A stretch of 64,000 nt of DNA, from contig CAVZJV010000014.1 in NCBI GenBank assembly GCA_963775685.1, positions 1,152,001 to 1,216,000 of the forward strand, read 5' to 3'. Both the position numbers and the translations under genes were made by a program. Every line of letters begins with the position of its first letter. Position 1 is the first letter of the stretch. Source of the DNA: Candidatus Bathyarchaeota archaeon (GTDB lineage Archaea; Thermoproteota; Bathyarchaeia; Bathyarchaeales; Bathycorpusculaceae). Positions 23,950 to 43,003 of this stretch are shown one piece after another. Under the pieces are notes generated by a model. It had not been told where the DNA came from and did no database searches. It worked only from the letters and a program-made list of their open reading frames with translations.

Positions 23950-24043
23950 TGTCTCTATCTATCATCAGTTGCTTGTTTTTACTTTTGTGGTAGACGGGAA
24001 ATGATTAATAAGACCGAGCCAAACAGTTTTCTATCCGAAACTT

Positions 24044-24193
24044 GCTACGGTAACCAAGCTAGGTCAAAGGTGAAAGAGCGCATTTAGGTGCGTTCCACTA
24101 AGGACTCAAGATCTCGACGCTTTGACTCAAGCGCCCAAATGGGAAATCCTTTCCCTCAGGGGTTCGCAGGTTCAAATCCTGCCCGTAGCACCA
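24044..24193 (+). tRNA. tRNA-Leu(CAA) with two introns (24075-24101 at position 28/29; 24111-24145 at canonical 37/38)
   Basis: Acceptor GCTACGG/CCGTAGC plus ACCA, T arm GCAGG-TTCAAAT-CCTGC, long variable arm; after splicing the anticodon stem is AAGGA/TCCTT with CT-CAA-GA; both introns have BHB-like 4-bp helices with 3-nt bulges. Confidence 0.9.
24173..24193 (+). repeat. attL (tRNA 3' end)
   Basis: CAAATCCTGCCCGTAGCACCA, identical to 44015-44035. Confidence 0.9.
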
Positions 24194-24349
24194 TTCCAGA
24201 TAAGCATTTTTACGTCTCCGCGGCTTTGCGAAGTATATCCCTAAGTTGCACCGTGAGAACCGATAATTGATGATTCTCAATTTCTCCAACTGCTGATATG
24301 TTGCCCATTGAAAGAGCTTCTCTGGACAGCAGTTGCTCAGGGTTTTCGC

Positions 24350-25775: not shown

Positions 25776-28310
25776 TTATACCCGTCTCTTTGTGACAAGC
25801 AACGCAAGCACTATACCAACTACTGCAATAGCAACAATAATTGCTGCTACGCTGGGTAGTAGGTATGTGTCAGCCATGGATTCAACTGGAACTGCTGTTG
25901 GTGTTGGGGTTGGCGATGATGGGTCAACAGCGAAGGCTGTGACTGCATGCGACGGATAGTAGGAGCTGCTGCCTGCGAAAGAAACGGTGATAATGTATTT
26001 GCCTGGAACTTGAGGAGTGAACACGGCGCTGTAGAAGCCGTTTGTATCGCTTGTGGTTGTGCCTACCTCATAGTAATTATTGTTCGGGTCAAGTACAGTT
26101 ATGATAACATCAACACCTGTCGCGTTTGTAGGCTTAATCTGCTGCTGGTAGGCGTACTCCATCCATGCTTCCATGCTATCCTCAGACACAGCTGGAAGAC
26201 CATCTGCAAAACGTGTTGTGATTACATCCTGCGTCGTGCCTCCAGATGTGTCCATAACCGTACCCTTAACGAGTACGCTGCCGCCATTTACCGAAACCTC
26301 CGGAGAATACTGAAACTGTGGTGACAGTTGGTCCCATGCCGAAGCTATATATCTGGTTGTCAAAGCTATTCCATGAAATCAAGTAGCCGTCGCCTACTGG
26401 ACCATTAGTTGTACTGCTGTACTGTAGTATTTTCCACACTAAACTTCCATCAGTGCAGTTTATGGCAAGTCGATAGCTCGGATGTAATGGCGGAGTGTAC
26501 ATGATGCCTTCTGAGAGGAATAGTTTTCCATCTGCAATATTATGTCGATTGTAGCCGAAAATTGGGTAGCTTTCGAAAGGAGTGTCATAGCCTGCGTCTC
26601 CAGCATAATATCCATGCGATCTTTCCTGTCTCAAGGTCGATGGCGTTTACGTAGCCTCCGAGGTCGAAGATGTAGACTTTGCCATAAGCGATTTCACCAT
26701 CACGCCAAACAGCACTGTCGCCGCCTCCTTTCAGTTGAACTGGACCCCATAACATTTGACCGGTTGTTAGACTATAGCCCCAAGCCACATCCCTATCCTT
26801 GTTATGCATCACGTAGTAGCCGTCGCGCGCAAAGTACACTTGTGTCTTCATATGCGGGAGAGTTTGGTTTATTGGTCCCCACAGTTTAGCGCCTGTCTTT
26901 GCATCGTAGCCTGCGACGTATTGATAGCCCAAAGTCATTCCTTGATACGAAACCGCCCCGGGCACTTGGCGCATAAGTATTACTTCAGGGGTTACTGCAG
27001 CAATGCTAAGGCTGATGGTGTCACCGTTGATTGTAGTTGGAAGCTCCGTTTTCCACTCTGTAGCCGCTGGCATGGAACCGTTAATGGTACCGCTTACGCG
27101 AATGAATGTGCCTGTGGATATCAATTTGGTGTAGTTGTACATGCACAGATTGCCACCAGAAACGTAGTAGCCGATAATTGCTCCCTGCAGATCTGACTCA
27201 TAATCAACTAGCCTGCTTGTACTAATAGTATTAGTAACGTTTGCCAAAAAGTTTCCAGTATATGCATCGTATATTCCCATCCAGTTCGCTGCAAACGAGA
27301 AGGCCCCGCCGGCTCCCGGCGAACTATATAGGAATGCATTTGATCCGAACTCCTGATAGTTATTGTAGTTCACTATTTGACCCCATGCAATTGTCTCGAT
27401 GCCTGATATACCCGCAGGTTTGTCCCACAGTACTTTTCCTGTGTGAACGTCTACGGCTCTCCAGCCTAACACATTAGAATTTGGACTACCGTCATATACA
27501 TTGTAATAGAGTATTCCGTTGAGGATGCATATTGGGTGAAAGTACGATTGAATTAGCGAGACCGAACTGTAAGCAGTGGATGAATCGCTGGCGATGGGTG
27601 ATCCTGGTTGGCCTCCGAATTGGGTTGGTTTCGTCCACACGATATGGGCAGAGTTTGGTGCTTGACCAGATGGCAGGACGTTTCCATAGCATCGTATGCC
27701 CCTTGACCGCCTACTCCAAACCAGTTAGACCCTATTTGTCCCCATTGCCAGTTAGTTGCATATATTGGGCGCGTCCAGAATTCAGTTGGAAGAGGAGGAG
27801 TCTGATATATTGGTTCTATTGGCTCTGTCGTTACTATCAGGGTCTTTATATTGCTTTCAGATGGCAACATTTTACTGCCAATCAGATTTTGGCTACTGCT
27901 ACTGAGGGTGGGATTATTTGGATTATTGCCTGTTAATACTTGTCCAGGATAAAAGGCTTGGAGAGTGTAATTGCCGACTTTATCGGGTGTAAAGTTAAGC
28001 ACTGCGCCTGCGACCGGGCTTGCAAGGTATGGTCCGTAAGTGGTTATATGTCCGTCAGGGTCTGTTATGTCGAGGGTTATGTCTTCATAGAGATCGCCTG
28101 TGTAACCCGCGCCTGTTGGTGTGGGTTTGCTGAAAGTGATGCCGACATAAACGTTTTGGCCAAGCCTACAGGGTCAGGTGAAGCGGTTACAAATAAGAAT
28201 GTTGGAATATCAATTGCTTGCGCAGGAGCAAGAGTAATCATAACAGGTAATGTCAACAGTAGAATCAAAGCAATAGTAGAAAGTTGCGTTTTTTTCTTTA
28301 TTAATAACAT
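25776..28310 (-). pseudogene. Secreted, C-terminally anchored PQQ-like beta-propeller surface protein, multiply frameshifted
   Basis: Signal peptide (28077-28310 fragment), AID..TG...W propeller repeats, PT-rich linker and TM + KRR tail (25776-26363); at least five ORF fragments in different frames. Confidence 0.8.
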
Positions 28311-28571
28311 TTTTTTCTCCTTCGTTTTAGATCTATAAGAATATAGACGATTTCATATTTCCCAAGATAGCGCTAATATAATTTTGTCTTAACACTCTAA
28401 TAATACAGAAAACTGTAAACTTGATAGTCGTACAGAGAGGTGACATTTTTGCTTAAAGATACGGATGTTATGTTTCTAGACTTGCCAGTTAAGGACCGCA
28501 TAGCAAGCTATCATTAGTTAATTTAATATACCGAAATTAACGATAAGAGTCTTGGAGATTTCTTACAAAAT

Positions 28572-29371
28572 TTGGAGAATGTAATGGATGCAAAAACATC
28601 GAAAAACGAAGCCTTACAGTATTTAATCCAGCTTGGTCTAACCCGGATACAGGCCAAAATATACCTTACTCTTTTGCTTTATGGCAAAGCTGAAGCTCGC
28701 ATTATCGCCCACTGGTCAAAGTCCCCAAGAACAGAAGTCTATAGAGCACTGAATGAACTTCAAGAAAACGGTTTGGTCGATAGAGAATTAAGTTGCCCAT
28801 TAAAATTCATCGCGGTGCCTCCCTCCCTGGGATTAAAAGCCTTTATCGACCACAAACTCCACGAAATTAACCAAATGCAAAAAACCCTAGAAAATTTTCT
28901 CTGAAGTTTGAAAGCAACCAAGAGCCAGACACAGAAAAAGAATACAAGATAACTTCAATCGAAGGGAGGAAAAGAATTATAACAAAAATCAAGCAACAGC
29001 ATGACTCAGCTAATTTATCTATCGATATTATATCATTTTTACCAAGATTTCTTTACATTGCTAGTGAATGCATGGAAAATTATAAAAAAGCCATAAAAAG
29101 AGGCGTAAAATACAGAATACTCCTTGGGAGACCTAATGACTCGCAAGACCTATCCCGCGAAATAAAAGAAGCGCATAAAAATGAAAACACCATAGTAAAA
29201 AAAGTTGTCGGATGTCTTCGAGAAAACTCAGCAATTTTTGACCAAAAACACATAAGCTTCAGCTACTACCCCGATAGACATATTGTAGAATCGCCATTAA
29301 TACTAACAAATCATCCGTGTCTAGTTTGGTTTGCACTGAACTCATTTCAAAGAACTTGGGATTCAACTTAA
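28572..29371 (+). pseudogene. TrmB-family transcriptional regulator, frameshifted
   Basis: LGLT..QAKIYL.LL..G...R.EVYR.L..L...GLV HTH; sensing domain continues in another frame after ~28900. Confidence 0.8.
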
Positions 29372-29404
29372 GCGCATTAATCCAGCGAGCATTGTTTTAT
29401 ATCA

Positions 29405-29695
29405 TTAAAAAAAGGGGTTTGCAGGATATGTCTCCAGAAAACTAAGGGTCCGTACTAGACGACGCGCCAACAATGTTGGACTACGGTAGTACGTACCTAA
29501 ATATGAAGTTTTTAGTTTGCGGAACAGTTTAGCTTCGTTAATCTCTGTCACGTATTGGAATCCGGCTTCTATGAGTTGCGTTGCTTCTTCCACAGTTTTG
29601 GCGGCTTTGCAGATGTATTCTTCGTTTTGTGGTAGTGCGAGCAGTTGAGTATAGCGAAGTGTCGTTTTTATGTTTCTGTGACCGAGCAGTTCTTG
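29405..29695 (-). pseudogene. Second tyrosine recombinase C-terminal remnant
   Basis: In-frame upstream extension QELLGHRNIKTTLRYTQL (LGH...T..Y motif) followed by AKTVEEATQLIEAGFQYV. Confidence 0.8.
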
Positions 29696-30082
29696 ATATT
29701 TGGCTCTTTTGTTTGGGGTTCTGTTTGTAAGTGTTTTCGAAAGGCTTCAAAGAATGGGAAATAAGGAACTGCCGCGGTTTGGTTAAATGCAGTTCTTTCA
29801 AGTTTGTTTTCACAAGTAACGTTTATTTCAGTCTTAGAAACTGTTGCGGAAATATTTTTCTCTAGACACCCTGAAAATTTAGGCAGTTCCAATCCTAAAA
29901 AAGATGTAGTCGCCGTCTGGGCTGTTTAATATTGTATCAAAAACTTCTTCAAACATAGTCTTAACTCAAAGAATTTAGTAGGGAAATGTTCTCCTTTCTC
30001 CAAGACTAAGTTGATCGGTTAGTTTAAGAAGGATATTCCAAAAACGGCAATATAACCCAGGAGGGCAGCAGACAAGTTTTGC

Positions 30083-30385
30083 TTATCTTGCCCAGCAGGG
30101 TCCATAGCCATATCGGTTGCCATAGCCGCCTTGATAGGGAGTTGGAGTTGGAACTGTGCCATCTGTGGGCGCTTGAGGTGCTACATACTGGCTTCCGTAA
30201 CCTTGGTTTACTCCGTAGCCAAAGCAGTTGCCAATCCATCCCCAAAATCCATTGTTTGGAGCTTGATCAGGGCTTGTGGTTGTGTATGGTTGGTTTGCGG
30301 CGATTTGGGCTGAAGCCAACCCAACAGCGACCAAGGTCAGCGCCGCCACAGCGACCAAGGCAAATATAATTTTTGTTTTTTGCAT
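30083..30385 (-). CDS. Small secreted Gly/Tyr/Pro-rich protein
   Basis: Signal peptide then low-complexity GYG repeats ending GPCW. Confidence 0.65.
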   Translation of the reverse strand: MQKTKIIFALVAVAALTLVAVGLASAQIAANQPYTTTSPDQAPNNGFWGWIGNCFGYGVNQGYGSQYVAPQAPTDGTVPTPTPYQGGYGNRYGYGPCWAR

Positions 30386-30767
30386 GTGTTTATCACCATA
30401 TTACCATATGTGCATGGGGGCTTATGGTAATTGGCTGAAACAAAACTGAAACAGTTTTGAAACAGAATTGAACCATCATTTCTGCATTTAATGAGCCCCA
30501 CCTTTAGTTTTTTATCCATCAAAAACAGGTTTTGTGTTTATCTGTTGTACAGTTGACTTTGGGACAATAAATATTGATTTTGACGACATATTTTACGTAT
30601 TGATTTGTATTTGTGTTGAACATTTAGATCCCGAAGCAGGTTTTGGTATGCTTGGGTTATGTGCGAGGGTTTATGTGGCGGTTTACGCACTATGAAGTCA
30701 GAAGAAATATGTCTTAAAAAGACACATTGTATTTCTGCACAACACAACAACAGGAGAAAAACAATAC

Positions 30768-31166
30768 ATGAATAAAAACTGCCAACAACAAGTCCAAACA
30801 AAACTCGCCAAAGGCCTCTTAGACATGATAATTCTGCAATTCCTTGGACACGAGTCCATGCACGGATACCAACTTATCACTAAAATCCGCAAGAGCTTCG
30901 GCGTCTACTTTGGACCAAGCACAATATACCCTTTGCTAGGACTACTGGAGAAAAAGGGATGCGTGAAGAGTGCTTGGAATATGGACTCAGAAAGGCCCCG
31001 AAAAGTATACAGCCTAACTAACGAAGGCAAAAGTCGTCTAAGCTTCACCGAAAGTTCCCTCAACTTAATCTGCAAAAATTTGGAAATCGACAATAAAATC
31101 CAATTAAAGACAGCCTCTATATTTGTCTGTGAGGTAAACGCCTTACATAGAACGCCTCACGTCTAA
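30768..31166 (+). CDS. PadR-family transcriptional regulator
   Basis: GLLDMIIL, MHGY.L, STIYP.L..LEK.G, RPRKVYSLT.EG. Confidence 0.9.
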   Translation: MNKNCQQQVQTKLAKGLLDMIILQFLGHESMHGYQLITKIRKSFGVYFGPSTIYPLLGLLEKKGCVKSAWNMDSERPRKVYSLTNEGKSRLSFTESSLNLICKNLEIDNKIQLKTASIFVCEVNALHRTPHV

Positions 31167-31343
31167 AGTAGGGATTTCGATTATTTTTTAGTTTCTTTAG
31201 CCTTGTGGATTTTCGGTAAAATTACCTGAATCTCTCTTCACTTTCAAATCAGCCCCCACTAGTGAACAAGGTAGTTTTGGGCGACAGTTTAAGAGCCAAA
31301 AACTGCCTTTTGCCATCCTTCAACATTTAGGAGAATTATCAAA

Positions 31344-32169
31344 TTGACTCAAAACTTAGTAGTCAAGCCTTCGCTATCTCAACCAGTTTTTCCATTGAAC
31401 ATAAGAGTTGTTAACGAGGTTTTTCCGGGATTCGCGGTGGGAGATTTTGCAGTTCTACAAGGCCCCGTTTCATCTTTGACATCTCTTTTATGTGTAAGAG
31501 CACAGCTTCCAACTCAATTAGGCGGGTTGAATAGTAATGTCATTTTTATCGACGGGGGGAACAGCTTTAGGCTTTATCAAATTGCCCAGTTAGCCCGGAT
31601 TCATCGCCTTAACCCAAAAAAAGTCTTGGATAACATTTACATTTCAAGAGCCTTTACAGCCTATCAAGTGGCTTCACTCGTTAAGCATTACCTTAAAGAA
31701 ACCATTAGAGAAATACAGCGCTAAGCTTGTGATAATTTAAGATATTGCCGGTTTCTTTCTAGACAAAGATATTCCTGAAGATGAAGCACAAAGAATCTTT
31801 GGTCAAGTAGCGACTTTTCTTTCAAATTTTGCCCGAGAATCCCAAACAATAATCATTGCAACCTACCCACAACACGCGAAGAGGCCAAGAAACGATCTGC
31901 TCCACTACCAAACAACCCGAAAAGCAAACGTTGTATTGTCCTTAAGAAAGACAAGTTACGCCCGGCAGTTTGTACCTAAAAAGCATCCCTATCTTTCCTC
32001 GGGCGTTGCTGAGTTGCCAGTAGAGGACTTGACGTTAGAAGATTTTGTGGAGGCGAATGCTGTTATTCCAGTTTTCGTTACCTGCAAAACGGAAAACGGT
32101 TTAGTTCCATTAACTGACTATGATTGTCTAATTTCTAAATTTGAGGATTCGCAGAAACAAATTGCATAG
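31344..32169 (+). pseudogene. Degenerate RadA/RecA-like protein lacking Walker A, disrupted
   Basis: QLP..LGGL.S.V.FIDGGN.F, I.ISRAFTAYQ; no GKT; stop/frameshift near 31724-31740 with continuation DI..FFLD. Confidence 0.7.
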
Positions 32170-32234
32170 AAACAGTTATGCATTTTCGTCTCAGACTGCT
32201 CCGTATTTCATAGACAACAAACACTCTTTTAATA

Positions 32235-32435
32235 TTAAAGATCGCTTTTGATGCTGTGCAACCGTCGATAAAAAAGCATATCCACAAGCACCAATAATAC
32301 TAATGCGATCAAAACCACAGCCAAGTATTCGGGGCGTCCACTGCCTGTTGAAACACGAATACCCAATTCTATACCATAAACTCCAATGATGATTGTCACG
32401 ATTACGGTTACTAAAAATCCTATTTTTGCGTTCAA
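32235..32435 (-). CDS. Small two-TM membrane protein
   Basis: Two hydrophobic helices, 66 aa. Confidence 0.5.
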   Translation of the reverse strand: MNAKIGFLVTVIVTIIIGVYGIELGIRVSTGSGRPEYLAVVLIALVLLVLVDMLFYRRLHSIKSDL

Positions 32436-32648
32436 AGCGGCTTCTTCTAATATTTACGTTTGCGTTCACTTATTTCTCTTTCTGAATATAAACATTCTAA
32501 GTCTCACAAAGAAGAGGGAAAAACCGATAGGAAGGCTTAAAGAAACAAGTCAATATTAAACTAAAGGAGCAAAGAAATTTGAAAAAACACAGCGACAACT
32601 TATTCACTCTTGACTTTTTCGGAGAAGCTTGGTTTTAGGTGAAAATAT

Positions 32649-32822
32649 ATGAAAGATTTTAAGTGTCCAATATGTGGCGGACCAACTGAAAAGGTTTGGG
32701 AAAACGCAACCAGAACAAGATATGGAATGAGATGCATAAAAGGCCACGAAAACACAAGTAACAAATCAGATGGTTCAAAACAGTACCCGGTAATTCTTGT
32801 TTCAAGTGAAGATCTTGTCTAG
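32649..32822 (+). CDS. CPxCG zinc-finger microprotein (57 aa)
   Basis: MKDFKCPICGG...RCIKGH; GGTGA ribosome-binding motif upstream; below the ORF-track cutoff. Confidence 0.6.
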   Translation: MKDFKCPICGGPTEKVWENATRTRYGMRCIKGHENTSNKSDGSKQYPVILVSSEDLV

Positions 32823-32918
32823 TTAAGAATGGCTGCCTTTTTTGCTGGAAAATACTGCAGGGAAATTGTTATTTGATTTCTGCTGACTTCCGCGTATTTT
32901 GTTATTGATTCTTGCATC

Positions 32919-33911
32919 TTATTTTCGGAATATTGGATCTGGATCGTTTAGGCTGCCATATAGTGCGTGTGCAGATTCTCTGCAGCCTCCCTTGCATTTG
33001 CCAATTTTGTCGCATCCTATGCACATCTTGGGTGTGTAACGCAATTCCACAAATCCTTTGATATAATCGGAGTTTTCATAAATTTCTTTAGGATTTGATT
33101 CCAAACAATTACCCAAAACTTGAGGAGAATGATTGCAAACTCTAAGACCCCCCGAAGGATCGATGGCGCAGTGAATACCTTTTCCTGCCATGCAGCCTTC
33201 TTTAAGAAGGAACTTGTAATTTCGCAATCCCTCAAGACATAACGGTGTTGGAGTACCCACCAGAGCAGGAATGCCATATTCATCACTTGCTTCCTCTGTA
33301 AGATTTAACATTTGCAAAAGCTCATTTTCATTAAAAGCCAAGTCAGTATTCTCTAGTCCTTTTCCACCAGGTAGGAAGCGATTTACCAAAACGGAGTTCA
33401 TGTCCAATCCAGCGGCAAGTGCAATAGTATCTTTTAGTTCAAAAAGGTTTAACCGATTAACGACAACAACAGCCGAGACTGAAACCTTGTAATCCATCAA
33501 GGCTGTTCTTCCCAGAATTGCTTTCTGAAAGTTGCCTATTTTGCCGGTTAGTTTATCATGAGTTGCCTGCAGTCCTTGCAGAGAAATCTGAACGACTTCA
33601 AAGTTCTGGGCTATTTGGCTGGAGAATTTTGATGCGAGTATTCCGTTAGTTAATAGAGAATTTTTAAAACCATTCGCTTTTGCGTATGCCGCTATTTCAA
33701 ACAGGTCTGGGTTTAGGAGGGGTTCTCCGCCGGAAAAACCCAGGGTATCTACGCCCCATTGTTTTAGTTTATCGATAATGGAAAAAAAGGAGGTTTTTGA
33801 GAGAACTTTTTCTTGGGGGTACTGGTGTTTGTTGGAGGTTCGCCAGGCGTTGTAGCAGAATTTGCATGCGGCATTGCATGAGTAGCCGACTTCCAAGATG
33901 ACGAATTTCAA
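32919..33911 (-). CDS. Radical SAM/SPASM protein (rSAM-3)
   Basis: CNAACKFC, SGGEPL, SPASM CMAG..C.IDP.G..RVC and CIGC-x5-CKGGC. Confidence 0.92.
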   Translation of the reverse strand: MKFVILEVGYSCNAACKFCYNAWRTSNKHQYPQEKVLSKTSFFSIIDKLKQWGVDTLGFSGGEPLLNPDLFEIAAYAKANGFKNSLLTNGILASKFSSQIAQNFEVVQISLQGLQATHDKLTGKIGNFQKAILGRTALMDYKVSVSAVVVVNRLNLFELKDTIALAAGLDMNSVLVNRFLPGGKGLENTDLAFNENELLQMLNLTEEASDEYGIPALVGTPTPLCLEGLRNYKFLLKEGCMAGKGIHCAIDPSGGLRVCNHSPQVLGNCLESNPKEIYENSDYIKGFVELRYTPKMCIGCDKIGKCKGGCRESAHALYGSLNDPDPIFRK

Positions 33912-34199
33912 TTAGCACTTCGCCTGAAGAGCAGCGATCTCTTTTAGGTGGGCTTCAAAGTGTGTGATGGCAACCTTGGCAAGTTTCGGGTCTAGTTTTT
34001 TGTTTTCAGCGAGTCGTTTTATTATGTTGATGCGTTCATTGAGGTGTTTCGCTATTACCCAAGGATGAGGGTCGGGTTCAGCAACGACCGTTTTGGCGAT
34101 TTCTGCATGATCAATTCCTTTGTTTAGGACTAGTTCCCACATTGGCGGAAAATAACAGATTGGCGGGCGGATGCGTATTCTATCAAAATTTTCGCTCAT
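33912..34199 (-). CDS. Small protein abutting rSAM-3, candidate substrate or partner
   Basis: Stop codon directly adjacent to the rSAM-3 start; PPICYFPP and EPDPHPW motifs. Confidence 0.65.
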   Translation of the reverse strand: MSENFDRIRIRPPICYFPPMWELVLNKGIDHAEIAKTVVAEPDPHPWVIAKHLNERINIIKRLAENKKLDPKLAKVAITHFEAHLKEIAALQAKC

Positions 34200-34867
34200 A
34201 AAAACCGCGTTAAATAAAATGCTTCATCTAAATATTAAAGCTTGAGGTTTCCGATTTCTTGATTGCAACCAAGCTCGATAAGTTAAACTCTCAAAGTGAT
34301 AGCCCTGAATTTTAACATGCCTCCTAAGGATTGGAAAGTCAATTCAGTTTTTGGTTTTAGTTCACTTTTGTTTGTTCATACATCATTGAGACGGTTATGC
34401 GTTTTCGGCTGAGACTACTGCAGATTTCGTTATTTATTCTTGTATCTTCTCTACCTTTGCTTTGCGTAATGAAAAAGAACGAATTTCCAGTTCTTCATTC
34501 TCCTCTAATTATCTGAGGGATAACTTGCTGAGCTGTAGACGGGTATTTTTGTATTGGAAGCTTTAAGCTTGCATATGGAAGTTCCACGGTTACTCGAGTT
34601 TTCCACCTCACATGGGGCATCTTCTCTTTATTGTATTTGAATTGTTGGAAGTTGGAGCGAGAAGTAGAAACAGAAGTAAATCTGGCGTTTTTATAGCAAT
34701 AGAAGCCACTGACAATGTTTCTGCCGCAACTGTCGCAAGGACATAGATAAATCAACCATAAAATTCGTTAACTTATCGTTCCTCGATTTTAAAAACAGCA
34801 TATTAAGGAAAATGGCTATTTTGGTTAGCTAACCGTTCTATTTGTGTTTGAGGCTTTTTAGAATAAT

Positions 34868-36068
34868 CTAAAAGATTGGTTTTATTTTTGAAAATAGGTA
34901 TTCTTGTAAGTTCGGCTGAAAAATATCTTGATTCTCAAAATAATTTTCTGCATAACACCCTCCAAGATAATCTCCTGCTATTCCTTTTTTTGAACAAGCA
35001 GACCGTAGCTTTAATCCAGAAACAAAGTCTAAGCGGCTATTTAAATTATAAATACCGTATTTAGTATCACCAAGTTTGGATAGTAATTGGCGATTATTCA
35101 AAGCTAAAACCCTACCACAGGCTGATATTTCTCCATTTGTATTCACACAAATCCGGCTTGTACCCGCTTCACAAACAAAAGAATTACTTTTTTTTAATTG
35201 CTCATGTTCGCCAATTTGTATGTCCCCACTTAACTTTATGTCGTTGCGCGACGAGTTTTTGTACCACATATACAATTTTTCTAAATTATGAACAAATTTT
35301 TCTCGGTCAATTAAAGGCCATTCCACACCGGTGGCATGCCCGATGATAAAGTCATTTACGCCTAACTTGTAAAGCCCTAAGACATCATCATATAGATTGG
35401 GAACGTTTTGGGGGGATACTGTCATTTTTGTGCCAATCCAGGGCTGACTTTCTTTTAATAATTGCATGTTTTTTATAGCTTTTTCGAAAGTACCTCTTCC
35501 AGATTTATCAATTCTGAATCTGTCATGAGATTCTTTTAAACCATCAATACTCAAAAGAACTTTAATTTTATGGGAAGAGAAAAAATCTGTCATTTCGTTA
35601 TTCAACAATAGGCCATTGGATGTCATGTCAAATTCAATTGATTTTTGTCTAACTGCAGCCCTCTCTTCGGCATAAATAGTTATTTCTTTTATAAGATCAA
35701 ATTCAAGAGTTGGTTCTCCTCCAAAAAAGAGAATAGTTAGATTCGTTTCATTTGCAGAATAATCAAGAAGAAGGTCTACAGCAGATTTAGCGATTGTTTT
35801 TTCCATGGATTCAGATGTTCTACAATTTTTTTCAAAACAATATTTGCAGGCTAATTGCACCTATTTGTTAGAATCAAGTCAAGTTTTGTTATAGGTGGAA
35901 AAATAGAAGAATTTGTATATAATATAATTTTGTAGAGTAATCTTTGACTTTCTTCGGATGAAATTCCTAGCTCCTCTCTTAATTTGCATATTAAGTCGTT
36001 CGTATCAGGAGAAGAACCAGCAAAAAACTCCTAGAAATCTGTTCGATAAAAAGTTCTCTGTCTATCAT
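34868..36068 (-). pseudogene. Radical SAM protein (rSAM-2), two apparent frameshifts
   Basis: LDLILTNRCN|LACKYC restores CxxxCxxC with one added base near 35853; second break near 36031; FFGGEPT, TSNG, SIDG..HD..R motifs. Confidence 0.82.
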
Positions 36069-36085
36069 GAATTAGATCTAGCCAT

Positions 36086-36298
36086 CTAAGGATGTAGTTT
36101 GTGGGTATAAGCATCGCTTGAGCACTTGTGAGGAGCCACGCAGTTATATACGTTCGAGCATTTGAATTTTAGAGTACACTTAAAGCCAAGAGCTCCGCTC
36201 TCCGCGATAGCCTTGACCGTTTCATCAGAACTCCCTATCTTTGCTGCAATACTTTTGGCAATTTTTTCTAATTCTTCCTCAGAAATTTTTTTTGACAA
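36086..36298 (-). CDS. Cys-rich candidate RiPP precursor (70 aa)
   Basis: Helical leader ISEEELEKIAKSIAAKI; core FKC-FKC-YNC-HKC with strict C-x5-C spacing; between rSAM genes. Confidence 0.8.
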   Translation of the reverse strand: MSKKISEEELEKIAKSIAAKIGSSDETVKAIAESGALGFKCTLKFKCSNVYNCVAPHKCSSDAYTHKLHP

Positions 36299-36302
36299 TG
36301 TC

Positions 36303-36536
36303 TTACCTCATAAGTTTTTTTGTAAACCCAGTAAAGCTATTCGAGCATTCAAAGTCATCACTACAAGAAAACAAACTAGCTTGGCAAGTAAAAGAACTAG
36401 CGTCACATGTATACTTAGAAGGTGTGTTACATGGGGTTGGTAATTCGCCTGCACGAAGGGCAACTGTTCCAATTTTTCCTTTTAGTTTCTCTGCAACTCT
36501 CGAAGCTATACGGTCAATTTCTTCGTCGGAAAGCAT
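36303..36536 (-). CDS. Cys-rich candidate RiPP precursor (77 aa)
   Basis: Leader LSDEEIDRIASRVAEKL; core YTC-FTC-FSC-FEC; ATG 36536 follows GGTGA. Confidence 0.8.
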   Translation of the reverse strand: MLSDEEIDRIASRVAEKLKGKIGTVALRAGELPTPCNTPSKYTCDASSFTCQASLFSCSDDFECSNSFTGFTKKLMR

Positions 36537-36788
36537 TTTTCTCACCTTTAATGTTAATCTTAATTAATTTATCTCATCCTTGACTTTAAGGAATTGTTGT
36601 TGTAAAAGCACAGTCACATCGTCTTTTATCTTTAATCGTATTTATTATGAAACAGGTCGTGCGGTTTTATCGAAGGCTACGGAGAAGAAAACGTAGAGAG
36701 TGAAGAAATTGATCCAAAAGGTTTCAGCTGCTTTGAAGAGGGCAAAGAAAAAGGGAAGGGAAAAGGCCTTACCTAACTCTAAGTAGCA

Positions 36789-37370
36789 CTAGGCACCTTT
36801 TCCTATTTCATTGGCTACGTCTTTGAGTTGTTTCTTAACTATATTGCGCATTTGGACCTCGCTAACTATTATTCCACTCTCTTTTGCAACAGCATCAGCT
36901 AAAGTAAGACCTATCGCGGCACTCATGGCAGCATTAATAACCGCTTTAGAAACCTTGTTTGCGATCTTATCAATTGACGAAGTAAAGTCACCATTATCAC
37001 ACTTATCACATGCTGGAGTGGGACCTGTACCACACGACCAACATGCTGGAGTGGGACCTGTACCACACGACCAACATGCTGGTTGAGGGCAATCTTCTGC
37101 TACAAGAGTCTCGCCGAAAGCTTGATTTAACCATTCCACATATTCAGGCATCGTTTTTTCAACGGCTTCATGTATGGCTGATTGCAGTTTTGTATACATT
37201 TGAGGATCAATCTTTTCAATTGAAGGGCTCCTCGAAAGGAGTTCCCGAAAACGTTTACTTTGCGCTTCAGTGAGTTTTTTAGCAGAAACTTTTGAGACCG
37301 ATTTTTTTGTTGAACGAGAAACACCTTGTCTTTTTAATTTTGCTTTAAGCGCTTTTTTAACTTTTGCCAA
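36789..37370 (-). CDS. 193-aa protein with internal Cys-rich repeat, candidate rSAM substrate
   Basis: Lys-rich N-terminus, CPQPACWSCGTGPTPACWSCGTGPTPACDKC core, then SIDKIANKVSKAV. Confidence 0.72.
   Translation of the reverse strand: MAKVKKALKAKLKRQGVSRSTKKSVSKVSAKKLTEAQSKRFRELLSRSPSIEKIDPQMYTKLQSAIHEAVEKTMPEYVEWLNQAFGETLVAEDCPQPACWSCGTGPTPACWSCGTGPTPACDKCDNGDFTSSIDKIANKVSKAVINAAMSAAIGLTLADAVAKESGIIVSEVQMRNIVKKQLKDVANEIGKGA
37008..37082. repeat. Perfect 33-bp tandem repeat (~2.3 copies), in frame
   Basis: ACATGCTGGAGTGGGACCTGTACCACACGACCA x2 plus ACATGCTGG; encodes PACWSCGTGPT on the minus strand. Confidence 0.95.
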
Positions 37371-37563
37371 AAATAATCACTAATATGACCTATGAAATGT
37401 CAGTTATTTATATTTATTGTTAATGCAACCTGCTCCAGAAATCAGGCTGCCGACCCTTCAATTTTTGGCTTCTATTGAATAACTTTACTGATTCTAACGT
37501 CAGCGTTCTTTATCGAAATCATTCAAAACAAATCCTTGAAGCAAAACGTTAGAGAAGGCATTG

Positions 37564-39048
37564 TTAGAGTTTGCGTTGTATTCGCTTCCGATTCTTTCTT
37601 TTGGAACTATTTTGTGATTTTGTTAGAAAATCATACGCCAATAACAATTTCAAAATTTCATTTTGGAAAGCACAGAAATAGTCTTCTTTTATGCCTAATT
37701 GACCAGTTTTGATATAGACATCGTATGCGCATGCACCACCGCATATTCCAAGTGCAGGGCAATTCATACATTCTTTGTTCTTTAGAGTCCCAAATTCAAA
37801 CCATTTATAAAAAAGTGGTTCTTCTTGAACTTTTAAATCATCTTTAATTGGAATTTGATATTTCCCCGACGGGTAGAAGGCTTGGCAAGGTCCAATTGTT
37901 CCTGAGGGAGAAAAGAATATTTGCTGACCAAATGCCGGGCAATCATATACGTGGAACATCTCTCTAAAGAAATATCTCGCCCTTCGCTTGTCTATCCGAT
38001 CTTCAAACATATGCAATTCTTTTGCTTTTAAGTACGCCTTAAAGAGATGATGAGCAAGTTGTTTTGGATCTGGCACTTCGAATTCAGTAGAGTCCTTGAT
38101 TCTAGTAAGCAAGTTAAAACCTAAACTCTTAATTCCCAATTTGTGAAAGAAATCTACTATTTCCTCCGCATATTCATAGTTCTGCTTGGTAATCGTGCAG
38201 GATATTCCCACATTTACGCTAGCTTCATTCAAGAGAGTTAGAGCTCTGAGTGTAGAATTGAAGGTTTCGATTCCTTCAGTAAAAACACGATTCCTATTAA
38301 TTCCATACCAACCATCAAGAGATAAGCCAACACTAACATTGTTTTCTTTAAGTTTTTTCGCTAATTCCTTCGTTACAAAGCTTCCATTCGTTACGCATGA
38401 AAAGGTAAACTTATTCTTGACTGCCCTCTCAAGCCTTTCGATTATATAAAAGATGATTTCGCTACTACTAAGAGGTTCACCTCCGTAAAATGTGACTTTG
38501 TACTCCTTAACTTCTTTTGCTGCTGTAATCAGAGCATTTATGACTTTGTCGGCTACCTCCTTAGACATTTTTACGCTCGGTCCTTTAAGAGAATTCTCTA
38601 TGAAGCAATAGCCGCATCTAAAGTTGCAGTAATCCGTTACTAAAACGTAGGATAGAAATGGAGACGGCGTCTTTCTAAGCATTTTGTCTGCCAATGTGCA
38701 AAAAACTCTCTCTCGATCAAAGCTTTGGGGCACAATAAATTCGAGATTAAGTAAGCTCTTTACAGATTCGCTAAGGCTATCCGTAGCCAGACCGGTTAAT
38801 ACAGAGATATATTCATCATTTTTTAGGTATACTTTCTTTAACGTCAAAGAATGGAAAAGACACTTCGTATCGTCATTTATGTTAAATATGTGAACGAACG
38901 GAGAAAACGTTAATTGATCAGATCCTTCTCGATGCGATTGCTCAATTGTCGCCTTTGCATTCAAAAGAGAACCATGATCTTTCTTAAGTTGCTTTTTGCT
39001 CGAGTTAGAAAGCGGAAAAGAAACCACCATGAATTCCAAAACCCTCAA
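37564..39048 (-). CDS. Radical SAM/SPASM peptide-maturase-like protein (rSAM-1) with N-terminal extension
   Basis: CNFRCGYC, FYGGEPL, SLDG, SPASM CPAFG..GPC and CMNC-x5-CGGAC..FC; ~130-aa N-terminal extension; true start may be downstream. Confidence 0.92.
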   Translation of the reverse strand: MRVLEFMVVSFPLSNSSKKQLKKDHGSLLNAKATIEQSHREGSDQLTFSPFVHIFNINDDTKCLFHSLTLKKVYLKNDEYISVLTGLATDSLSESVKSLLNLEFIVPQSFDRERVFCTLADKMLRKTPSPFLSYVLVTDYCNFRCGYCFIENSLKGPSVKMSKEVADKVINALITAAKEVKEYKVTFYGGEPLSSSEIIFYIIERLERAVKNKFTFSCVTNGSFVTKELAKKLKENNVSVGLSLDGWYGINRNRVFTEGIETFNSTLRALTLLNEASVNVGISCTITKQNYEYAEEIVDFFHKLGIKSLGFNLLTRIKDSTEFEVPDPKQLAHHLFKAYLKAKELHMFEDRIDKRRARYFFREMFHVYDCPAFGQQIFFSPSGTIGPCQAFYPSGKYQIPIKDDLKVQEEPLFYKWFEFGTLKNKECMNCPALGICGGACAYDVYIKTGQLGIKEDYFCAFQNEILKLLLAYDFLTKSQNSSKRKNRKRIQRKL

Positions 39049-39256
39049 ATTATTAAAAGTTTTCCCAAGGTTCTTAAAGCAATTTCAGTTATGACAAATG
39101 CAGTTTTCGATTACTTTTCCTTCTATCATATTTTTTCTTTGAAAATCCTCAAGAGGCAGAGAACCGCTAAACCGCTTCTCCAACTTTACTTCATTTAGAG
39201 TATAGCTACCTATACCACACTTAGTGACCGAAAACTATCCGCTTGGTCCCAACGTT

Positions 39257-39766
39257 TTACAATGTCAAAATCCGTAACTTGTAACCCTCCAGTTTCAACT
39301 TTTCAAAGATGCGTTTCTGATCAGCCTCATCTCTACACTCAATTATTATCTCATAGGTTCCAGGGATAGATACCGGAATCTCATGGTCATCCAAATCCTC
39401 AGGAATTTTCTCGCCGACGGATTCAAGGAGCGACTTCAAATCTTCTTTTTCGCCTTGTTCAATTATGCGCAGATATTCGGCGCTGTCCAACTCTTTGTTG
39501 TGTTTACCCCTTAGCTTGTTGAGCACCTGCCGCAGAAGCCGGCGATCAACATCTTTAACTGGCAAGCGAATGACGCTGCACTCAGTCATGCCAAGCTCCT
39601 TCATAGCGGTAACACGCTGCTGCCCATCTGCCACCAAAAGCTCACTGTTGGTGACGACGGGAACGATGTCCCCCCATCGCTTAATTGAAGCTTTCAAGCG
39701 GTCAAGCTGCGCCAAGCTCATCATGTTAGGATTGTCTTGGTCAAACTTGAGATCGCTGATTTTCAC
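39257..39766 (-). CDS. ParB/Srx N-terminal domain protein (virus-associated type)
   Basis: I.DLK....NPN.M, L..SI.RWG...PVV, VADGQQR..A..ELG. Confidence 0.8.
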   Translation of the reverse strand: MKISDLKFDQDNPNMMSLAQLDRLKASIKRWGDIVPVVTNSELLVADGQQRVTAMKELGMTECSVIRLPVKDVDRRLLRQVLNKLRGKHNKELDSAEYLRIIEQGEKEDLKSLLESVGEKIPEDLDDHEIPVSIPGTYEIIIECRDEADQKRIFEKLKLEGYKLRILTL

Positions 39767-39959
39767 TGCGCTCCGACATGGGAATCGGAATTTCTTTTCG
39801 ATTTTCGCTCGGTTTCACTTGCTCGGTCACTCATATTTTCAGATTCTCCGTAACGTTTTCTGTTGTCAGCAATTGGTTAATTTGGACATTTTGGGATATT
39901 TTCTTAAACCAGTCGCACTGGTTCCGCACACGTCGGACATTTTTCTTTAAGGTAACGTG

Positions 39960-40631
39960 CGTTACGTGCGTCAGTCTCCGCGTTTTCCGCTTGTTTCTTG
40001 CTGTTCTTCTAACTCTTCTTGCCTAGCTTGCTCGGGTGTCCTGTTAGCGATAAACTGTTGAATGTCCTCGGTTGTTTTGAAAACGTGATGTTGGTCACAG
40101 TAGCGTTGAAAACTCTCAGGAGTAAATAGGTCATGGTTCCAAGTTTGCATAAACGGGAGCTAAACGCCTTTCCTGTTCGCCTTCGCATAGTTCCCAATAG
40201 CCAGGCGTGTTAAAGACTGCTTCTTCCGCGTCAAATTGCTCTTTGAACTTGCGGGTTTCTTCTATAAGCCAATAAAACCGCGTGTAGAACACCCAATTAG
40301 CCATAGGGTCTTTATACGTTACAAAAGCATCCGTGAAGGTTTGGAAAATCTCCAGTATCCTAGCCATAAAGCGATGGTTGGCTGCGTCCACAATTGCTTG
40401 GTCGTCTGAAGATAACGGGATATAAGCGGTTTCTCCCCGTGATAATGGCTTGCCTGCATTTCTTCTGCGTGAGCATTGCAAGATTTGAGTTGCTCGTCTA
40501 TGTAATTCGTTTTCGGCTCGATCTAACTCTGTGTCTCCGTTTTCCCATGTTATTCTTGTTGTGCCTTCTTCGGGAAGTTCAGGTAACACATTTTTTTCTA
40601 ATTCATGCAGTTTCCTGCTTAGAATGTTCAT
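39960..40631 (-). pseudogene. Element hypothetical protein, frameshifted (paralog of 24350-25060 N-terminus)
   Basis: ORF 40131-40631 continues past a frame break near 40140 (WNHDLFTPESFQRYC...); a short off-frame patch versus copy 1; end approximate. Confidence 0.62.
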
Positions 40632-41284: not shown

Positions 41285-42275
41285 TTGAGTATTGAGAACC
41301 CAAAGTCTGTATGCTTCTCAACAGCAGAATTGAAGCTGAGGATGGTGTTTGGCATGATAGAGACTGAGAACCTTACCAGAAAGTTCGGGAACCTAACTGC
41401 GGTCAACAATCTAACCCTTCGCGTAGACGAGGGTGAAGTCTTCGGTTTACTTGGACCCAACGGGGCAGGAAAAACCACCACGGTGAGAATGTTCTGCTGC
41501 CTGATATCTAAGACAAGCGGCACTGCCAAGGTTGGCGGTTACGAGGTCGGCAGTGAAGAAAATGCCCGGAAGATTAGAAAAATCATCGGGCTCGTCCCAG
41601 ACAACGTAGGGCTCTACGAATCGCTCACTGCCTACGAAAACCTGGACTACTACGGAACACTTTACAGGCGAACTGACACCCAGCGCAAAGAAAGCAATGA
41701 GTACTTCCTGAAGCTGCTTGGGCTTTGGGAGAAAAGAGACGTTCTTGCGGGAGCATTCTCCAAGGGAATGAAACAGAAGCTCGCTATAGCCCGCGCTAGT
41801 CCACGACCCCCAGATAATTTTCATGGATGAGCCGACTGCAAACCTCGATCCCGAATCCGCTAAAAAAGTGAGGGAATTCATTCTCTCCCTGAAGAAGGAA
41901 AAGAAAACCATCTTCCTCAATACGCACAACCTCGATGAAGCCCAGAGAATCTGTAATAGAATCGGTATCTTAAATACCCGCCTGATGGCAGTGGGCTCCC
42001 CTCAAGAACTCGAACAATCCATCCATGGAAGGAAGACGGTGATCCAGCTCAGACAAGTGAACGAAGCGATTCTGGATTCCCTCAACCGACTCAAAATAAA
42101 GAACTTGGTTCGGGAAGGTAACAAGTTAACTGTCGATGTCGCCAATCCCCAAGAGGAGAACCCAGAAATGATAAATGCAATTGTTAAGGCTGAAGGACGC
42201 ATCGAGACGGTAACAGTGACTAGCAGTTCGCTGGAAGACACGTACTTGAAACTAGTAAAGGAGAACCCCCAATGA
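41285..42275 (+). pseudogene. ABC-2 type exporter ATPase, single frameshift near 41797
   Basis: GPNGAGKTT, FSKGMKQK, then ARA|LVHDPQIIFMDEPT across frames; likely start near 41341-41354. Confidence 0.88.
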
Positions 42276-43003
42276 CCGCTTGGTTACCATGGAAGATAGC
42301 ACAGAAAGAACTCAAAGTAATCAGACGAAAGAAAAGCATTATCTTCTATACTGTTGGGCTTCCCCTCCTAATCGCAATTGTTTTCTCACTTGTCCTTAAG
42401 AGCCAAACAGCCAACGGAATTCCTAATACAATCGCACTAGGCGCTGACTCAATCGTTTACCTCTTCGTTATTTTAGCAACAGTCCTTCCCAGCACGATTG
42501 CAGCATACAGCATAGTGGGGGAAAAAGTCGAAAAGACATTGGAACCGTTGCTGGCGACTCCGACGACTGATGGCGAGATTCTGCTGGGAAAAAGCATCGC
42601 CGCCTTCATACCGCCTATTCTGTCCACATGGACAGGGGCATCAATCTTCATGGCAGCAACGGACTATTTCTTGCACAATCCAGGGTTAGGCTACTACTAT
42701 TTTCCCAACTGGAACGCCGGCGTTATGCTGTTGCTTCTGGCGCCGCTTGCAGCGGTTCTTAGTATTGAAGTAGCAGTGATTGCATCCGCGCGGGTAAGCG
42801 ATGTTCGGGGTGCAAACCAGATTGCAGGTCTCATGTTTATTCCGTTTGTCGCTGTCTTCTTTGTGGGAGTCGAAGGGATTTTCTCATTCAGTATCGGTAA
42901 CCTATTGATCTTCGCCGCCGTTGTTTTGATCGCTGACATAATTCTGTTCTTCTTAAGTAAATCTACATTCAAGCGAGAAGAGATACTAACAAAATGGAAG
43001 TAG
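42272..43003 (+). CDS. ABC-2 type exporter permease
   Basis: KELK, SIVGEK.EKTLEPLLATP..D.EILLGK, about six TMs, FKRE.IL. Confidence 0.9.
   Translation: MTAWLPWKIAQKELKVIRRKKSIIFYTVGLPLLIAIVFSLVLKSQTANGIPNTIALGADSIVYLFVILATVLPSTIAAYSIVGEKVEKTLEPLLATPTTDGEILLGKSIAAFIPPILSTWTGASIFMAATDYFLHNPGLGYYYFPNWNAGVMLLLLAPLAAVLSIEVAVIASARVSDVRGANQIAGLMFIPFVAVFFVGVEGIFSFSIGNLLIFAAVVLIADIILFFLSKSTFKREEILTKWK

Follow-up and report, generated by a model that had tools for sequence, protein, structure and literature searches.

Tandem aromatic- and cysteine-rich candidate RiPP precursors encoded beside a PapB-like radical SAM gene in Bathyarchaeota

Thioethers installed on peptides by radical SAM (rSAM) enzymes increasingly provide new enzyme chemistry and constrained scaffolds, and to our knowledge few of the peptides characterised so far are archaeal. 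SCIFF cassettes such as that of thermocellin (CteA-CteB) lack a protease and an exporter. Triceptides, the three-residue cyclophane RiPPs made by enzymes of the XyeB, GrrM, FxsB and YhhB families, have a three-residue motif of the form aromatic-x-x. The PqqD-like recognition element at the N-terminus of RRE-dependent RiPP maturases consists of three strands and three helices. In freyrasin, a ranthipeptide of Paenibacillus polymyxa, PapB installs six in-line Cys-x3-Asp/Glu thioethers on the precursor PapA (PMC9413430). The archaeal Crp system of Methanococcus voltae (CrpA/CrpB/CrpC) has two adjacent substrates, CrpA and CrpB, with a common N-terminus, different Cys repeats and thioethers installed by an rSAM enzyme; CrpA is large and carries C-x-x-Q/D motifs and a repeat of 17 residues (PMC13692751). 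Thuricin CD is likewise made of two separately encoded rSAM-cross-linked peptides, Trn-alpha plus Trn-beta, which act as a pair; the system has two rSAM enzymes, hairpin sactionine links and a Gram-positive host (PMC12093266).

Here we describe a cassette of two small tandem genes, A and B, and an rSAM gene immediately downstream, within the window (the whole 64,000-nucleotide stretch of the Bathyarchaeota contig that was analysed). Its features are as follows.

36542-36546, minus strand: Shine-Dalgarno-like GGTGA, 5 nt upstream of the ATG of A
36303-36536, minus strand: precursor A (ORF 36536->36303), 77 aa from an ATG start to a TAA stop at 36303-36305; helical leader at about residues 1-30, A-type core with 5 Cys, and an end formed by N-x-F-T-G plus a 7-residue tail
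36305-36309, minus strand: Shine-Dalgarno-like GAGGT, 6 nt upstream of the TTG of B and within the last codons of A
36086-36298, minus strand: precursor B (ORF 36298->36086), 70 aa from a TTG start to a TAG stop at 36086-36088; leader related to that of A, then a B-type core with 4 Cys and a conserved C-x-A-P-H-x-C
34868-36068, minus strand: PapB-like radical SAM maturase, its reading frame split into three in this assembly by breaks, one near 36030 and the other at 35851-35860

Both precursor ORFs are unbroken and separated by 4 nt (36299-36302), so that the initial annotation, which placed the genes 4 bp apart and gave each a ribosome-binding motif, reads correctly on both counts. The position of GAGGT inside the last codons of A suggests coupled translation of the two genes. 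The cassette contains neither a protease nor an exporter, as in SCIFF systems, and no flanking repeats were found around it. A scan for sigma-70 promoters and terminators gave background levels only, with the sigma-70 model not being applicable to archaea. The cassette lies within a low-GC stretch (0.35-0.41, compared with 0.44-0.47), in which other genes are also split. Small shares of the stretch are present in four soil-metagenome runs from one study, and no RNA run was among those listed.

The second break in the maturase gene falls inside the CxxxCxxC motif. A tblastn comparison of an intact 400-aa homologue (P0031) with the window gives identities of 80% (frame -2), 95% (frame -1) and 97% (frame -3). 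A 97%-identical relative is thus unbroken, and an intact orthologue of 401 aa is found at 3788-4993 of locus L023. The frameshift at 36030 is contradicted by three independent sequences, a Logan contig, L029 and L023, each of which has one extra base at this site. The Logan contigs assembled from the soil runs span parts of the stretch, with 35851-35860 lying outside their cover.

Re-reading of the two precursors gives the Cys registers C-x7-C-x6-C-x6-C-x5-C for A and C-x5-C-x5-C-x5-C for B, identical to those first noted. As also stated in the initial annotation, each core contains four aromatic-x-Cys units and a final unit without Cys: YTC, FTC, FSC and FEC followed by FTG in A, and FKC, FKC, YNC and HKC followed by YTH in B. 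The first Cys of A (in TPC) is a fifth, with no aromatic residue at -2. When the cores were shuffled 100,000 times each, the observed number of aromatic-x-Cys units was matched in just 49 shuffles for A and 62 for B, placing the motif beyond chance. The Cys register is maintained in orthologues of 55-82% identity.

The two leaders can be aligned (A versus B by BLASTP: E=1e-4, 28% identity over 76 columns) and share an amphipathic helix of the form [DE]-E-[ILV]-x-x-[ILV]-A-x-x-[ILV]-A, bearing out the view that a common leader precedes diverging cores. Comparison of the window with L029 by the Nei-Gojobori method gave pN 0.054 and pS 0.245 for the leader of A, and 0.061 and 0.147 for that of B, as against pN 0.115 and pS 0.069 for the core of A, and 0.148 and 0.081 for that of B. 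In this pair of sequences, and with small substitution counts, the leaders are thus conserved while the cores vary at non-scaffold positions. The proposal that a conserved leader with a variable core marks these genes as RiPP precursors gains support from this pattern and from the rSAM neighbour.

The precursors belong to a rare and uncatalogued peptide family. When 1.84 billion (1.84e9) cluster representatives were searched exhaustively with a profile, 25 matched, comprising about 21 true relatives and 4 false positives; the latter, the long matches P0007, P0020, P0024 and P0026, were dropped as repeat or zinc-finger proteins. Neither Pfam nor NCBIfam (E<=0.01) has a model for A or B, and eight further family members compared with NCBIfam at E<=0.1 had only two chance matches to unrelated models. 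A metagenome scan with A alone as query found no relative, the ESM Atlas gave no usable match to A, and word-index protein searches returned just 2 and 6 proteins. Across 200 genomes of the order A had weak matches only (E>=0.01), and a regular-expression check of 25 loci (L001-L025) recovered the motif in the window and L023 alone. Literature searches, supplements excluded, yielded no description of the family. Orthologues of A are P0002 (82% identity), L023 3338-3565 (55%) and L029 690-923; those of B are L023 3570-3764, which has an ATG start, L029 928-1140 and P0012, at 62 aa the smallest member. Some family members carry A alone or B alone, while others are leader-B-A or A-B fusions (P0017 and P0025 are fused examples). 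The A and B cores thus represent two conserved kinds of module, which also turn up fused within one peptide. A modules conserve D-A-x-S after the second Cys and an N ahead of the last Phe, and B modules conserve A-P-H.

Motif statistics were compiled for 28 family members with 192 Cys in total. An aromatic residue (F, Y, W or H) is found at -2 of 169/192 Cys, the 23 others being mainly the first Cys of A-type cores or of a multi-unit third type, and an aromatic occurs ahead of the next Cys in 189/192 cases. Counted from each Cys, the next aromatic is at +4 in 114 cases, +5 in 58 and +6 in 18. Gaps between Cys are mostly 5 (80 cases) or 6 (48 cases), and each peptide has 5-18 aromatic residues. 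None of the 28 members contains CxxC, CxC or CC, and no two Cys lie within 3 positions of each other. Such clusters, together with few aromatics, would be expected of small metallothionein-like or Fe-S-binding proteins; homologues resembling metallothioneins, which the initial annotation had named as an outcome that would speak against it, were not encountered.

At all those loci inspected, five that are distinct, the precursor gene or genes lie directly upstream of a homologous rSAM gene of ∼400 aa. These are the window, L023, L026/L027 (two records that share one sequence), L028 and L029, the contig of the last stopping 22 codons into the rSAM gene; those outside the window come from a second Bathyarchaeota MAG, from a close relative in metagenomes and, in two cases, from distant metagenome loci. 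Both distant loci have the two cores fused behind one leader, with B ahead of A. The arrangement is preserved between enzymes only 39-40% identical. Homologues without an rSAM neighbour, the other outcome that had been named as adverse, were not encountered among those with readable flanks. L023 and the window have unrelated flanks, so that the conserved unit is just A, B and the rSAM gene. The PapB-like enzyme is the one that stays with the precursors; the other two rSAM genes nearby do not. Enzyme homologues number at least 205 proteins at E<=1e-30, from archaea and bacteria, annotated merely as 'radical SAM protein'. There was no match at E<=1e-50 in 400 other genomes of the phylum (4 candidates scored per genome) and none in plasmids by tblastn, while 80 loci on viral contigs encode rSAM proteins at only 25-40% identity, with no family-like precursor and 2 chance matches to the regular expression.

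For each of the four enzymes compared, the top NCBIfam model is the PapB ranthipeptide maturase NF047865, which scores 192-228 bits, below its cutoff of 340 (202 for the largest frame piece of the window, 227.7 for L023, 195.7 for L027 and 191.8 for L028). QhpD, CcpM and SCIFF models follow. The closest solved relative is the SCIFF maturase CteB (5wgg; E=1.9e-29), with a structural match of Z 36.6 over 334 residues. Four of the six 'catalytic proximity' positions of CteB, as given in PMC10288494 and mapped by alignment, are identical in the enzyme. There are also differences from SCIFF systems: with TIGR03974 the maturase reaches 108-138 bits (cutoff 425), the precursors match no SCIFF model (TIGR03973 / TIGR03974), and structural matches span residues 54-401 only, leaving the CteB recognition element (chain residues 1-87) without an aligned counterpart. 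In the AF2 model, searched as the whole protein, the N-terminus is free of strands and forms three helices (residues 3-15, 23-34 and 38-55). A complex prediction of the L023 enzyme with precursor A' scored 0.71, not clearly apart from a control that reached 0.64.

The three Cys of CxxxCxxC (reference positions 70, 74 and 77) are present in 60/60 family rows, the motif of the window itself being cut by the second frameshift. Seven C-terminal Cys positions, the number expected for two auxiliary clusters, are occupied in 60, 60, 52, 59, 60, 37 and 27 of the 60 rows, and the window, L023, P0030, P0031 and P0032 have only 4 of them. Pfam reports no SPASM domain in the maturase. Judging from its Cys positions, the Bathyarchaeota clade of the enzyme may carry one auxiliary cluster, not two.

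Taken together, A and B are probably RiPP precursors whose leaders are recognised by the adjoining rSAM enzyme, which would turn the core Cys into cross-links, likely thioether rings. In this scheme an amphipathic helical leader precedes a core in which a Cys and an aromatic recur every 6-7 positions, and the enzyme encoded immediately downstream would bind that leader. The core Cys would then be converted to intramolecular cross-links, most probably ranthipeptide-like thioethers to a carbon other than the alpha carbon, giving a chain of small rings, 5 for A and 4 for B. The partner of each Cys would most likely be the aromatic residue 4-5 positions downstream; we favour this pairing because the ring size would match that of Cys-x3-Asp in PapB products and because a benzylic C-beta hydrogen should be easy for the 5'-deoxyadenosyl radical to abstract. 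Pairing each Cys with the aromatic that follows leaves 1 conserved residue per A and B pair as an orphan, compared with 3 for pairing within aromatic-x-Cys. Natural variants disagree on the matter: L028 lacks the first A-module Cys and keeps the Tyr that follows, while P0018 lacks both.

Freyrasin is a close parallel, with a minimal cassette and a core of tandem short Cys-containing repeats. The sub-cutoff enzyme score and the lack of Cys-x3-Asp/Glu in the cores nevertheless mean that PapB chemistry is not simply transferable: no Cys of A or B has Asp/Glu at +4, the residue at +4/+5 being Phe, Tyr or His, and the present system also differs in its two module types and two leaders, in the short three-helix bundle modelled at the N-terminus of the enzyme, and in the four instead of seven C-terminal Cys positions of the Bathyarchaeota clade. 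The Crp system is similarly archaeal, with two adjacent substrates, but CrpC belongs to TIGR04463, on which the enzymes described here reach only 71-79 bits (cutoff 525), and A and B have no sequence relation to its substrates. Because A and B modules are fused elsewhere, their two products probably act as a pair, for which thuricin CD may serve as a model by analogy, although the A/B locus has one enzyme and thuricin CD two.

An alternative that we consider unlikely is a RiPP with a three-residue ring inside each aromatic-x-Cys unit, closed either by an aryl-sulfur bond or, as in triceptides, as a cyclophane joining an aryl carbon to the third residue's C-beta. The strictly spaced, aromatic-first and many times repeated unit is shaped like the triceptide motif, its spacing being exact for the 169 Cys counted above while the distance from Cys to the next aromatic varies, and L028 retains Y-D-C even though its first A-module Cys is gone. 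The cyclophane-forming models YhhB, AmcB, XyeB, GrrM and FxsB do match the enzymes, but at 51-94 bits, far from both the PapB score and the cutoffs of 310-450 for the triceptide group. Three conserved elements would be orphaned in every A and B pair, namely A's first Cys and the F-x-G and Y units at the ends, and since the third residue is always Cys in this family, its invariance would be left unexplained if it were a simple C-beta donor.

Still less probable, in our judgement, are thioethers from sulfur to an alpha carbon (sactionines) or to non-aromatic acceptors, such as Asp, Ser or Asn in A modules and Ala-Pro-His in B modules. The conservation of these residues, the match of the RumMC sactisynthase model at 81-111 bits and the Asp, Glu, Thr, Asn and Met acceptors described in PMC9413430 and PMC13692751 are consistent with such links. 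However, the nearest similarity is to ranthisynthases (PapB, QhpD, CteB), donors and acceptors are not in a hairpin arrangement, and the aromatic is the sole residue that recurs once per Cys. We give almost no weight to unmodified small Cys-rich proteins that bind metal or form disulfides beside a coincidental rSAM gene, or to a dead remnant cassette in this genome, as the twice-broken maturase frame and the low-GC setting with its other split genes might suggest, against which stand the aromatic-rich cores free of close Cys pairs, the synteny held across divergent enzymes, the two unbroken precursor ORFs, the intact 97%-identical enzyme and the absence of the 36030 frameshift from the Logan contig, L029 and L023.

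Returning to Cys-aromatic thioethers, literature searches found neither a thioether to the beta carbon of an aromatic residue nor any Cys-aromatic rSAM cross-link. We can therefore only tentatively entertain the bolder proposal that the linkage is an undescribed thioether from Cys to the benzylic beta carbon of the Phe, Tyr or His at +4-5, producing 'beads on a string' of aryl-bearing rings, that A- and B-type strings are halves of one functional unit repeatedly fused, split and re-ordered between archaea and bacteria, and that the Bathyarchaeota enzymes use a single auxiliary cluster.

A, B and their rSAM enzyme are probably a variant of the rSAM-modified RiPPs already known. The peptide family offers a highly regular candidate substrate, in which Cys and aromatic each come once per 6-7 residues and which has no Pfam or NCBIfam family, beside a sizeable enzyme clade that extends through archaea and bacteria. 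As a small three-gene system it is amenable to testing by co-expression. Its split, fused and re-ordered module forms are natural experiments on the assembly of RiPP cores, and an aromatic acceptor, if true, would widen known thioether chemistry.

Both precursor genes are read from the minus strand, directly upstream of a gene for a PapB-like radical SAM (rSAM) maturase:

36536 to 36303, minus strand: gene A, ATG start, TAA stop, 77 residues; GGTGA (read from the sequence) 5 nt before the ATG
36298 to 36086, minus strand: gene B, TTG start, 70 residues; GAGGT (read from the sequence) 6 nt before the TTG, within the last codons of A
36068 (ATG) to 34868, minus strand: PapB-like rSAM, directly downstream of B after a 17 nt gap

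The initial annotation described two closely spaced genes, each with a ribosome-binding motif, and this was borne out, the TAA of A and the TTG of B being 4 nt apart. The Cys registers of the cores also differ exactly as stated (C-x7-C-x6-C-x6-C-x5-C in A, C-x5-C-x5-C-x5-C in B), and each core carries the aromatic-x-Cys unit four times and then one unit that lacks Cys (FTG in A, YTH in B). The additional Cys at the front of the A core has no aromatic at -2. When each core was shuffled 100,000 times, the observed aromatic-x-Cys count was matched in 49 (A) and 62 (B) shuffles. The proposed shared leader is supported by the N-terminal regions of A and B, which can be aligned (BLASTP E=1e-4, 28% identity). 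Neither A nor B matches a Pfam or NCBIfam model at E≤0.01, and eight more family members compared with NCBIfam at E≤0.1 gave just two chance matches, to unrelated models.

An exhaustive search of 1.84 billion cluster representatives, with a profile built from A, B and P0002 (82% identical to A), returned 25 matches at E≤1e-3, of which 21 are small peptides; the four long matches, repeat or zinc-finger proteins, were dropped. The 21 peptides can be broken down into a leader and core modules of two types. The A type, C-x5-7-Y-x-C-D-A-x-S-F-x-C-x3-4-F-x-C-x3-5-F-x-C-x-N-x-F-[TKS]-G, frequently sits at the C-terminus, and the B type reads [YF]-x-C-x3-5-F-x-C-x2-3-Y-x-C-x-A-P-H-x-C-x3-4-Y.

Arrangement of core modules in the precursor family (P, related proteins; L, related loci)
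Separate genes, each with its own leader, A then B: window, L023, L029
A-B read-through fusions, second leader kept (degenerate in P0004): P0003, P0004
Single leader, B, linker, A: P0008, P0009, P0015, P0017, P0018, P0019, P0025, P0027, L028 precursor
A only: P0011, P0013, P0014
B only: P0012, P0149
Third kind, 6-7 aromatic-x-Cys units: P0010, P0016, P0021, P0022, P0023

Among the 23 members that carry either module, A and B adjoin or are fused in 14; the remaining nine are A-only or B-only proteins seen without flanks. The products of the two modules are therefore expected to act together. Precursor peptides are rare among called proteins, with 1-2 members in each of ten clusters looked up. 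The precursors are an uncatalogued two-module Cys/aromatic family, served by a distinct clade of PapB-like enzymes.

The cassette recurs at loci in other sequence records:

L023, Bathyarchaeota MAG: A' (75 aa), B' (64 aa, ATG start), intact 401-aa rSAM
L029, 1.2-kb metagenome contig, 89% DNA identity: A, B and the initial 22 codons of the rSAM
L026 = L027, metagenome, high-GC genes on the flanks: single 113-aa precursor, then 413-aa rSAM
L028, groundwater metagenome: single 107-aa precursor, then 396-aa rSAM

Together with the window, these contents place an rSAM gene beside the precursor or precursors at every inspectable locus, and no homologue without such a neighbour was found where the surroundings could be read. 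Among named relatives, a 'Candidatus Bathyarchaeota' MAG carries the cassette closest to that of the window. The L023 rSAM is 80% identical to the largest piece of the window rSAM, and the flanks of the two loci are unrelated. The enzymes at L027 and L028 share no more than 39-40% identity with that of L023, and PapB is again their best model (192-196 bits). The fusion P0003 and the enzyme P0032 seem to share one contig (both records 7,243,441 nt), as do P0033 and the B-only P0012 (both 5,079 nt).

Among NCBIfam models, PapB ranthipeptide maturase scores highest on the window rSAM (202 bits, cutoff 340), ahead of QhpD, CcpM, the CXXX-repeat family and SCIFF. As assembled here, the gene is spread over three frames, with breaks near 36030 and at 35851-35860, the latter within the CxxxCxxC motif. 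The intact P0031 (400 aa, metagenome) is 80%, 95% and 97% identical to the three pieces, and the breaks correspond to its residues 13-15 and 72/73. Base-level comparison with other sequences covers the 36030 site of the two: one base missing in the window is present in a soil-metagenome short contig, L029 and L023, and L029 reads in frame through the equivalent site. Our reading is that the frameshifts arose in assembly or are very recent lesions; they are no sign that the system is old debris.

Motif statistics were taken from 28 members (20 rows of A6, the alignment of precursor family members, plus P0003, P0004, P0010, P0016, P0021, P0022, P0023 and P0149), a set that contains close relatives, so that rows are not independent. 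Of 192 Cys in total, 169 have F/Y/W/H at -2, the 23 others being mainly those that come first in an A-type core or in a peptide of the third, multi-unit kind, and 189 have an aromatic before the next Cys downstream. An aromatic stands at +4 in 114 cases and at +5 in 58. Gaps of 5, 6 and 7 between Cys number 80, 48 and 14. A metallothionein-like nature, the alternative raised initially, is disfavoured by the occurrence of CxxC, CxC or CC in 0 of the 28 peptides.

Nei-Gojobori values, window versus L029
A leader: pN 0.054, pS 0.245
B leader: pN 0.061, pS 0.147
A core: pN 0.115, pS 0.069
B core: pN 0.148, pS 0.081

The pN is low in leaders and higher in cores, with no change in the Cys and aromatic scaffold; on small counts, this is the pattern of RiPP precursors and supports the original reading of a conserved leader with a variable core. 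What is shown directly is the genes themselves, with their conserved scaffold and their constant position beside a single rSAM family.

The enzyme family is far larger than the peptide family, comprising at least 205 proteins at E≤1e-30, mostly of 44-51% identity and ~400 aa. The few named relatives are called just 'radical SAM protein', plus one 'anaerobic sulfatase-maturating enzyme', and sources include Methanosarcinales, Methanoperedens, Methanotrichaceae, Nitrososphaeraceae, Pelotomaculum, Bacillus toyonensis, Bryobacteraceae and Blastocatellia. The precursor family is served by the L027 and L028 enzymes, which are more distant; a good part of the homologues at 44-51% identity probably have the same role, alongside small ORFs that escaped gene calling.

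An AF2 model of the L023 enzyme (mean pLDDT 88.8) superposes best on the SCIFF maturase CteB (Z 36.6, 334 residues, model 54-401), also the best PDB match by sequence (E=1.9e-29). Six 'catalytic proximity' positions have been defined on CteB (PMC10288494); by alignment, the first four are identical here (F, F, T, S), and the last two are G and R, against H and Q in CteB. The N-terminal 55 residues of the model form three helices and no strands, unlike the canonical recognition element. The three cluster Cys are invariant across a 60-row enzyme alignment, and seven C-terminal Cys positions occur in most rows (filled in 60, 60, 52, 59, 60, 37 and 27 of 60), just four of them in the window, L023, P0030, P0031 and P0032. 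The Bathyarchaeota enzymes align without the second and third Cys of the CteB C-x2-C-x5-C-x3-C, a Pfam scan of the window enzyme found no SPASM domain, and these enzymes may carry one auxiliary cluster. The rSAM family is akin to thioether-forming maturases.

The system would operate much as the PapA/PapB and SCIFF thioether systems do, and in logic it resembles archaeal CrpA/CrpB/CrpC, with two substrates that have a common N-terminus and differing Cys repeats (PMC13692751). It is a member of none of these, because curated cutoffs are missed, the Cys-x3-Asp/Glu motif is absent and the precursors match no model. An archaeal RiPP cluster survey (PMC12144867) mentions ranthipeptide and sactipeptide clusters across archaea, without products. 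Literature searches, supplements excluded, found no paper on the precursor family.

The window is archaeal, encoding RNA polymerase A'/A'' and B, aEF-2 and Orc1/Cdc6. Other features are:

14942-18775, minus strand: RNA polymerase A' (residues 7-881) and A'' (908-1262) in one 1277-aa ORF
31344-31724, plus strand: Rad51/RecA-like ATPase fragment, 126 aa
31741-32169, plus strand: 142-aa open frame following that fragment
32919-33911, minus strand: rSAM/SPASM, 330 aa; weak best models GeoRSP, NirJ, PqqE (96-110 bits)
33912-34199, minus strand: 95-aa ORF of no family, preceding the 330-aa rSAM/SPASM
34378-34576 and 32153-32209 (L023 1397-1796; L029 2-412): GNAT acetyltransferase-like
36789-37370, minus strand: Lys-rich, helical-front protein, 193 aa, three 11-residue Cys repeats
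37564-39048, minus strand: rSAM/SPASM, 494 aa; best model FibroRumin maturase (180 bits, cutoff 400)
41285-41830 / 41823-42275, plus strand: ABC transporter ATPase split into two overlapping ORFs, frameshift upstream of 41790
42272-43003, plus strand: ABC-2 permease, after the split ATPase

A search of 200 further genomes from the order, of which 17 belong to the same genus, gave no credible match to precursor A, and the enzyme had none at E≤1e-50 among 400 further genomes of the phylum (4 candidates scored per genome). The cassette lies in a 12-kb low-GC stretch (28000-40000; GC 0.35-0.41 versus 0.46-0.47 in the flanks) with many short ORFs, a candidate integrated element. Genes for an integrase-like protein, a DNA methylase and a ParB/GmrSD-like protein lie at its borders or close by (23062-25060, 39257-39766). 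Low GC, these neighbours and presence in bacteria-like contigs point to horizontal spread. GNAT-like sequence lies upstream of A in L029 and L023 and downstream of the rSAM in the window. It is open over 136 readable codons in L029, where the contig start cuts it, and survives near the cassette as stop-containing remnants in the window and L023 (L023 1397-1678 matches window 34766-34485 at 71%); the remnant positions hint at a permuted mobile unit. The 193-aa protein, its repeats encoded by 33-nt direct repeats (36990-37088), lies directly downstream of the 494-aa rSAM/SPASM, probably as a separate substrate-enzyme pair, and the pair is absent beside the L023 cassette. Both rSAM/SPASM genes are outside the conserved precursor-rSAM unit, the ABC genes are not conserved with it, and the Rad51/RecA-like fragment and the 142-aa frame may be another split gene.

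As for the chemistry, the leader helix would dock on the enzyme, a 5'-deoxyadenosyl radical would take hydrogen from an acceptor residue, and the Cys sulfur would then capture the resulting carbon radical. We favour as likely acceptor the aromatic that follows each Cys at a distance of 4-5 residues, because no other residue recurs once per Cys and because hydrogen is readily abstracted from a benzylic C-beta. This pairing would also account for the conserved Cys that opens the A core and for the F-x-G and Y units without Cys that close the modules, and its ring size would equal that of the PapB motif Cys-x3-Asp (PMC9413430). A three-residue ring within the aromatic-x-Cys unit, in place of the downstream link, is a live alternative that fits the strictly fixed spacing of the unit, but it would leave three orphan conserved residues per A+B pair, compared with one for the downstream pairing. 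Natural variants conflict on this point, the L028 precursor lacking the first Cys and keeping the next Tyr, and P0018 lacking both. If proven, a thioether to the downstream aromatic acceptor would extend what is known of thioether chemistry.
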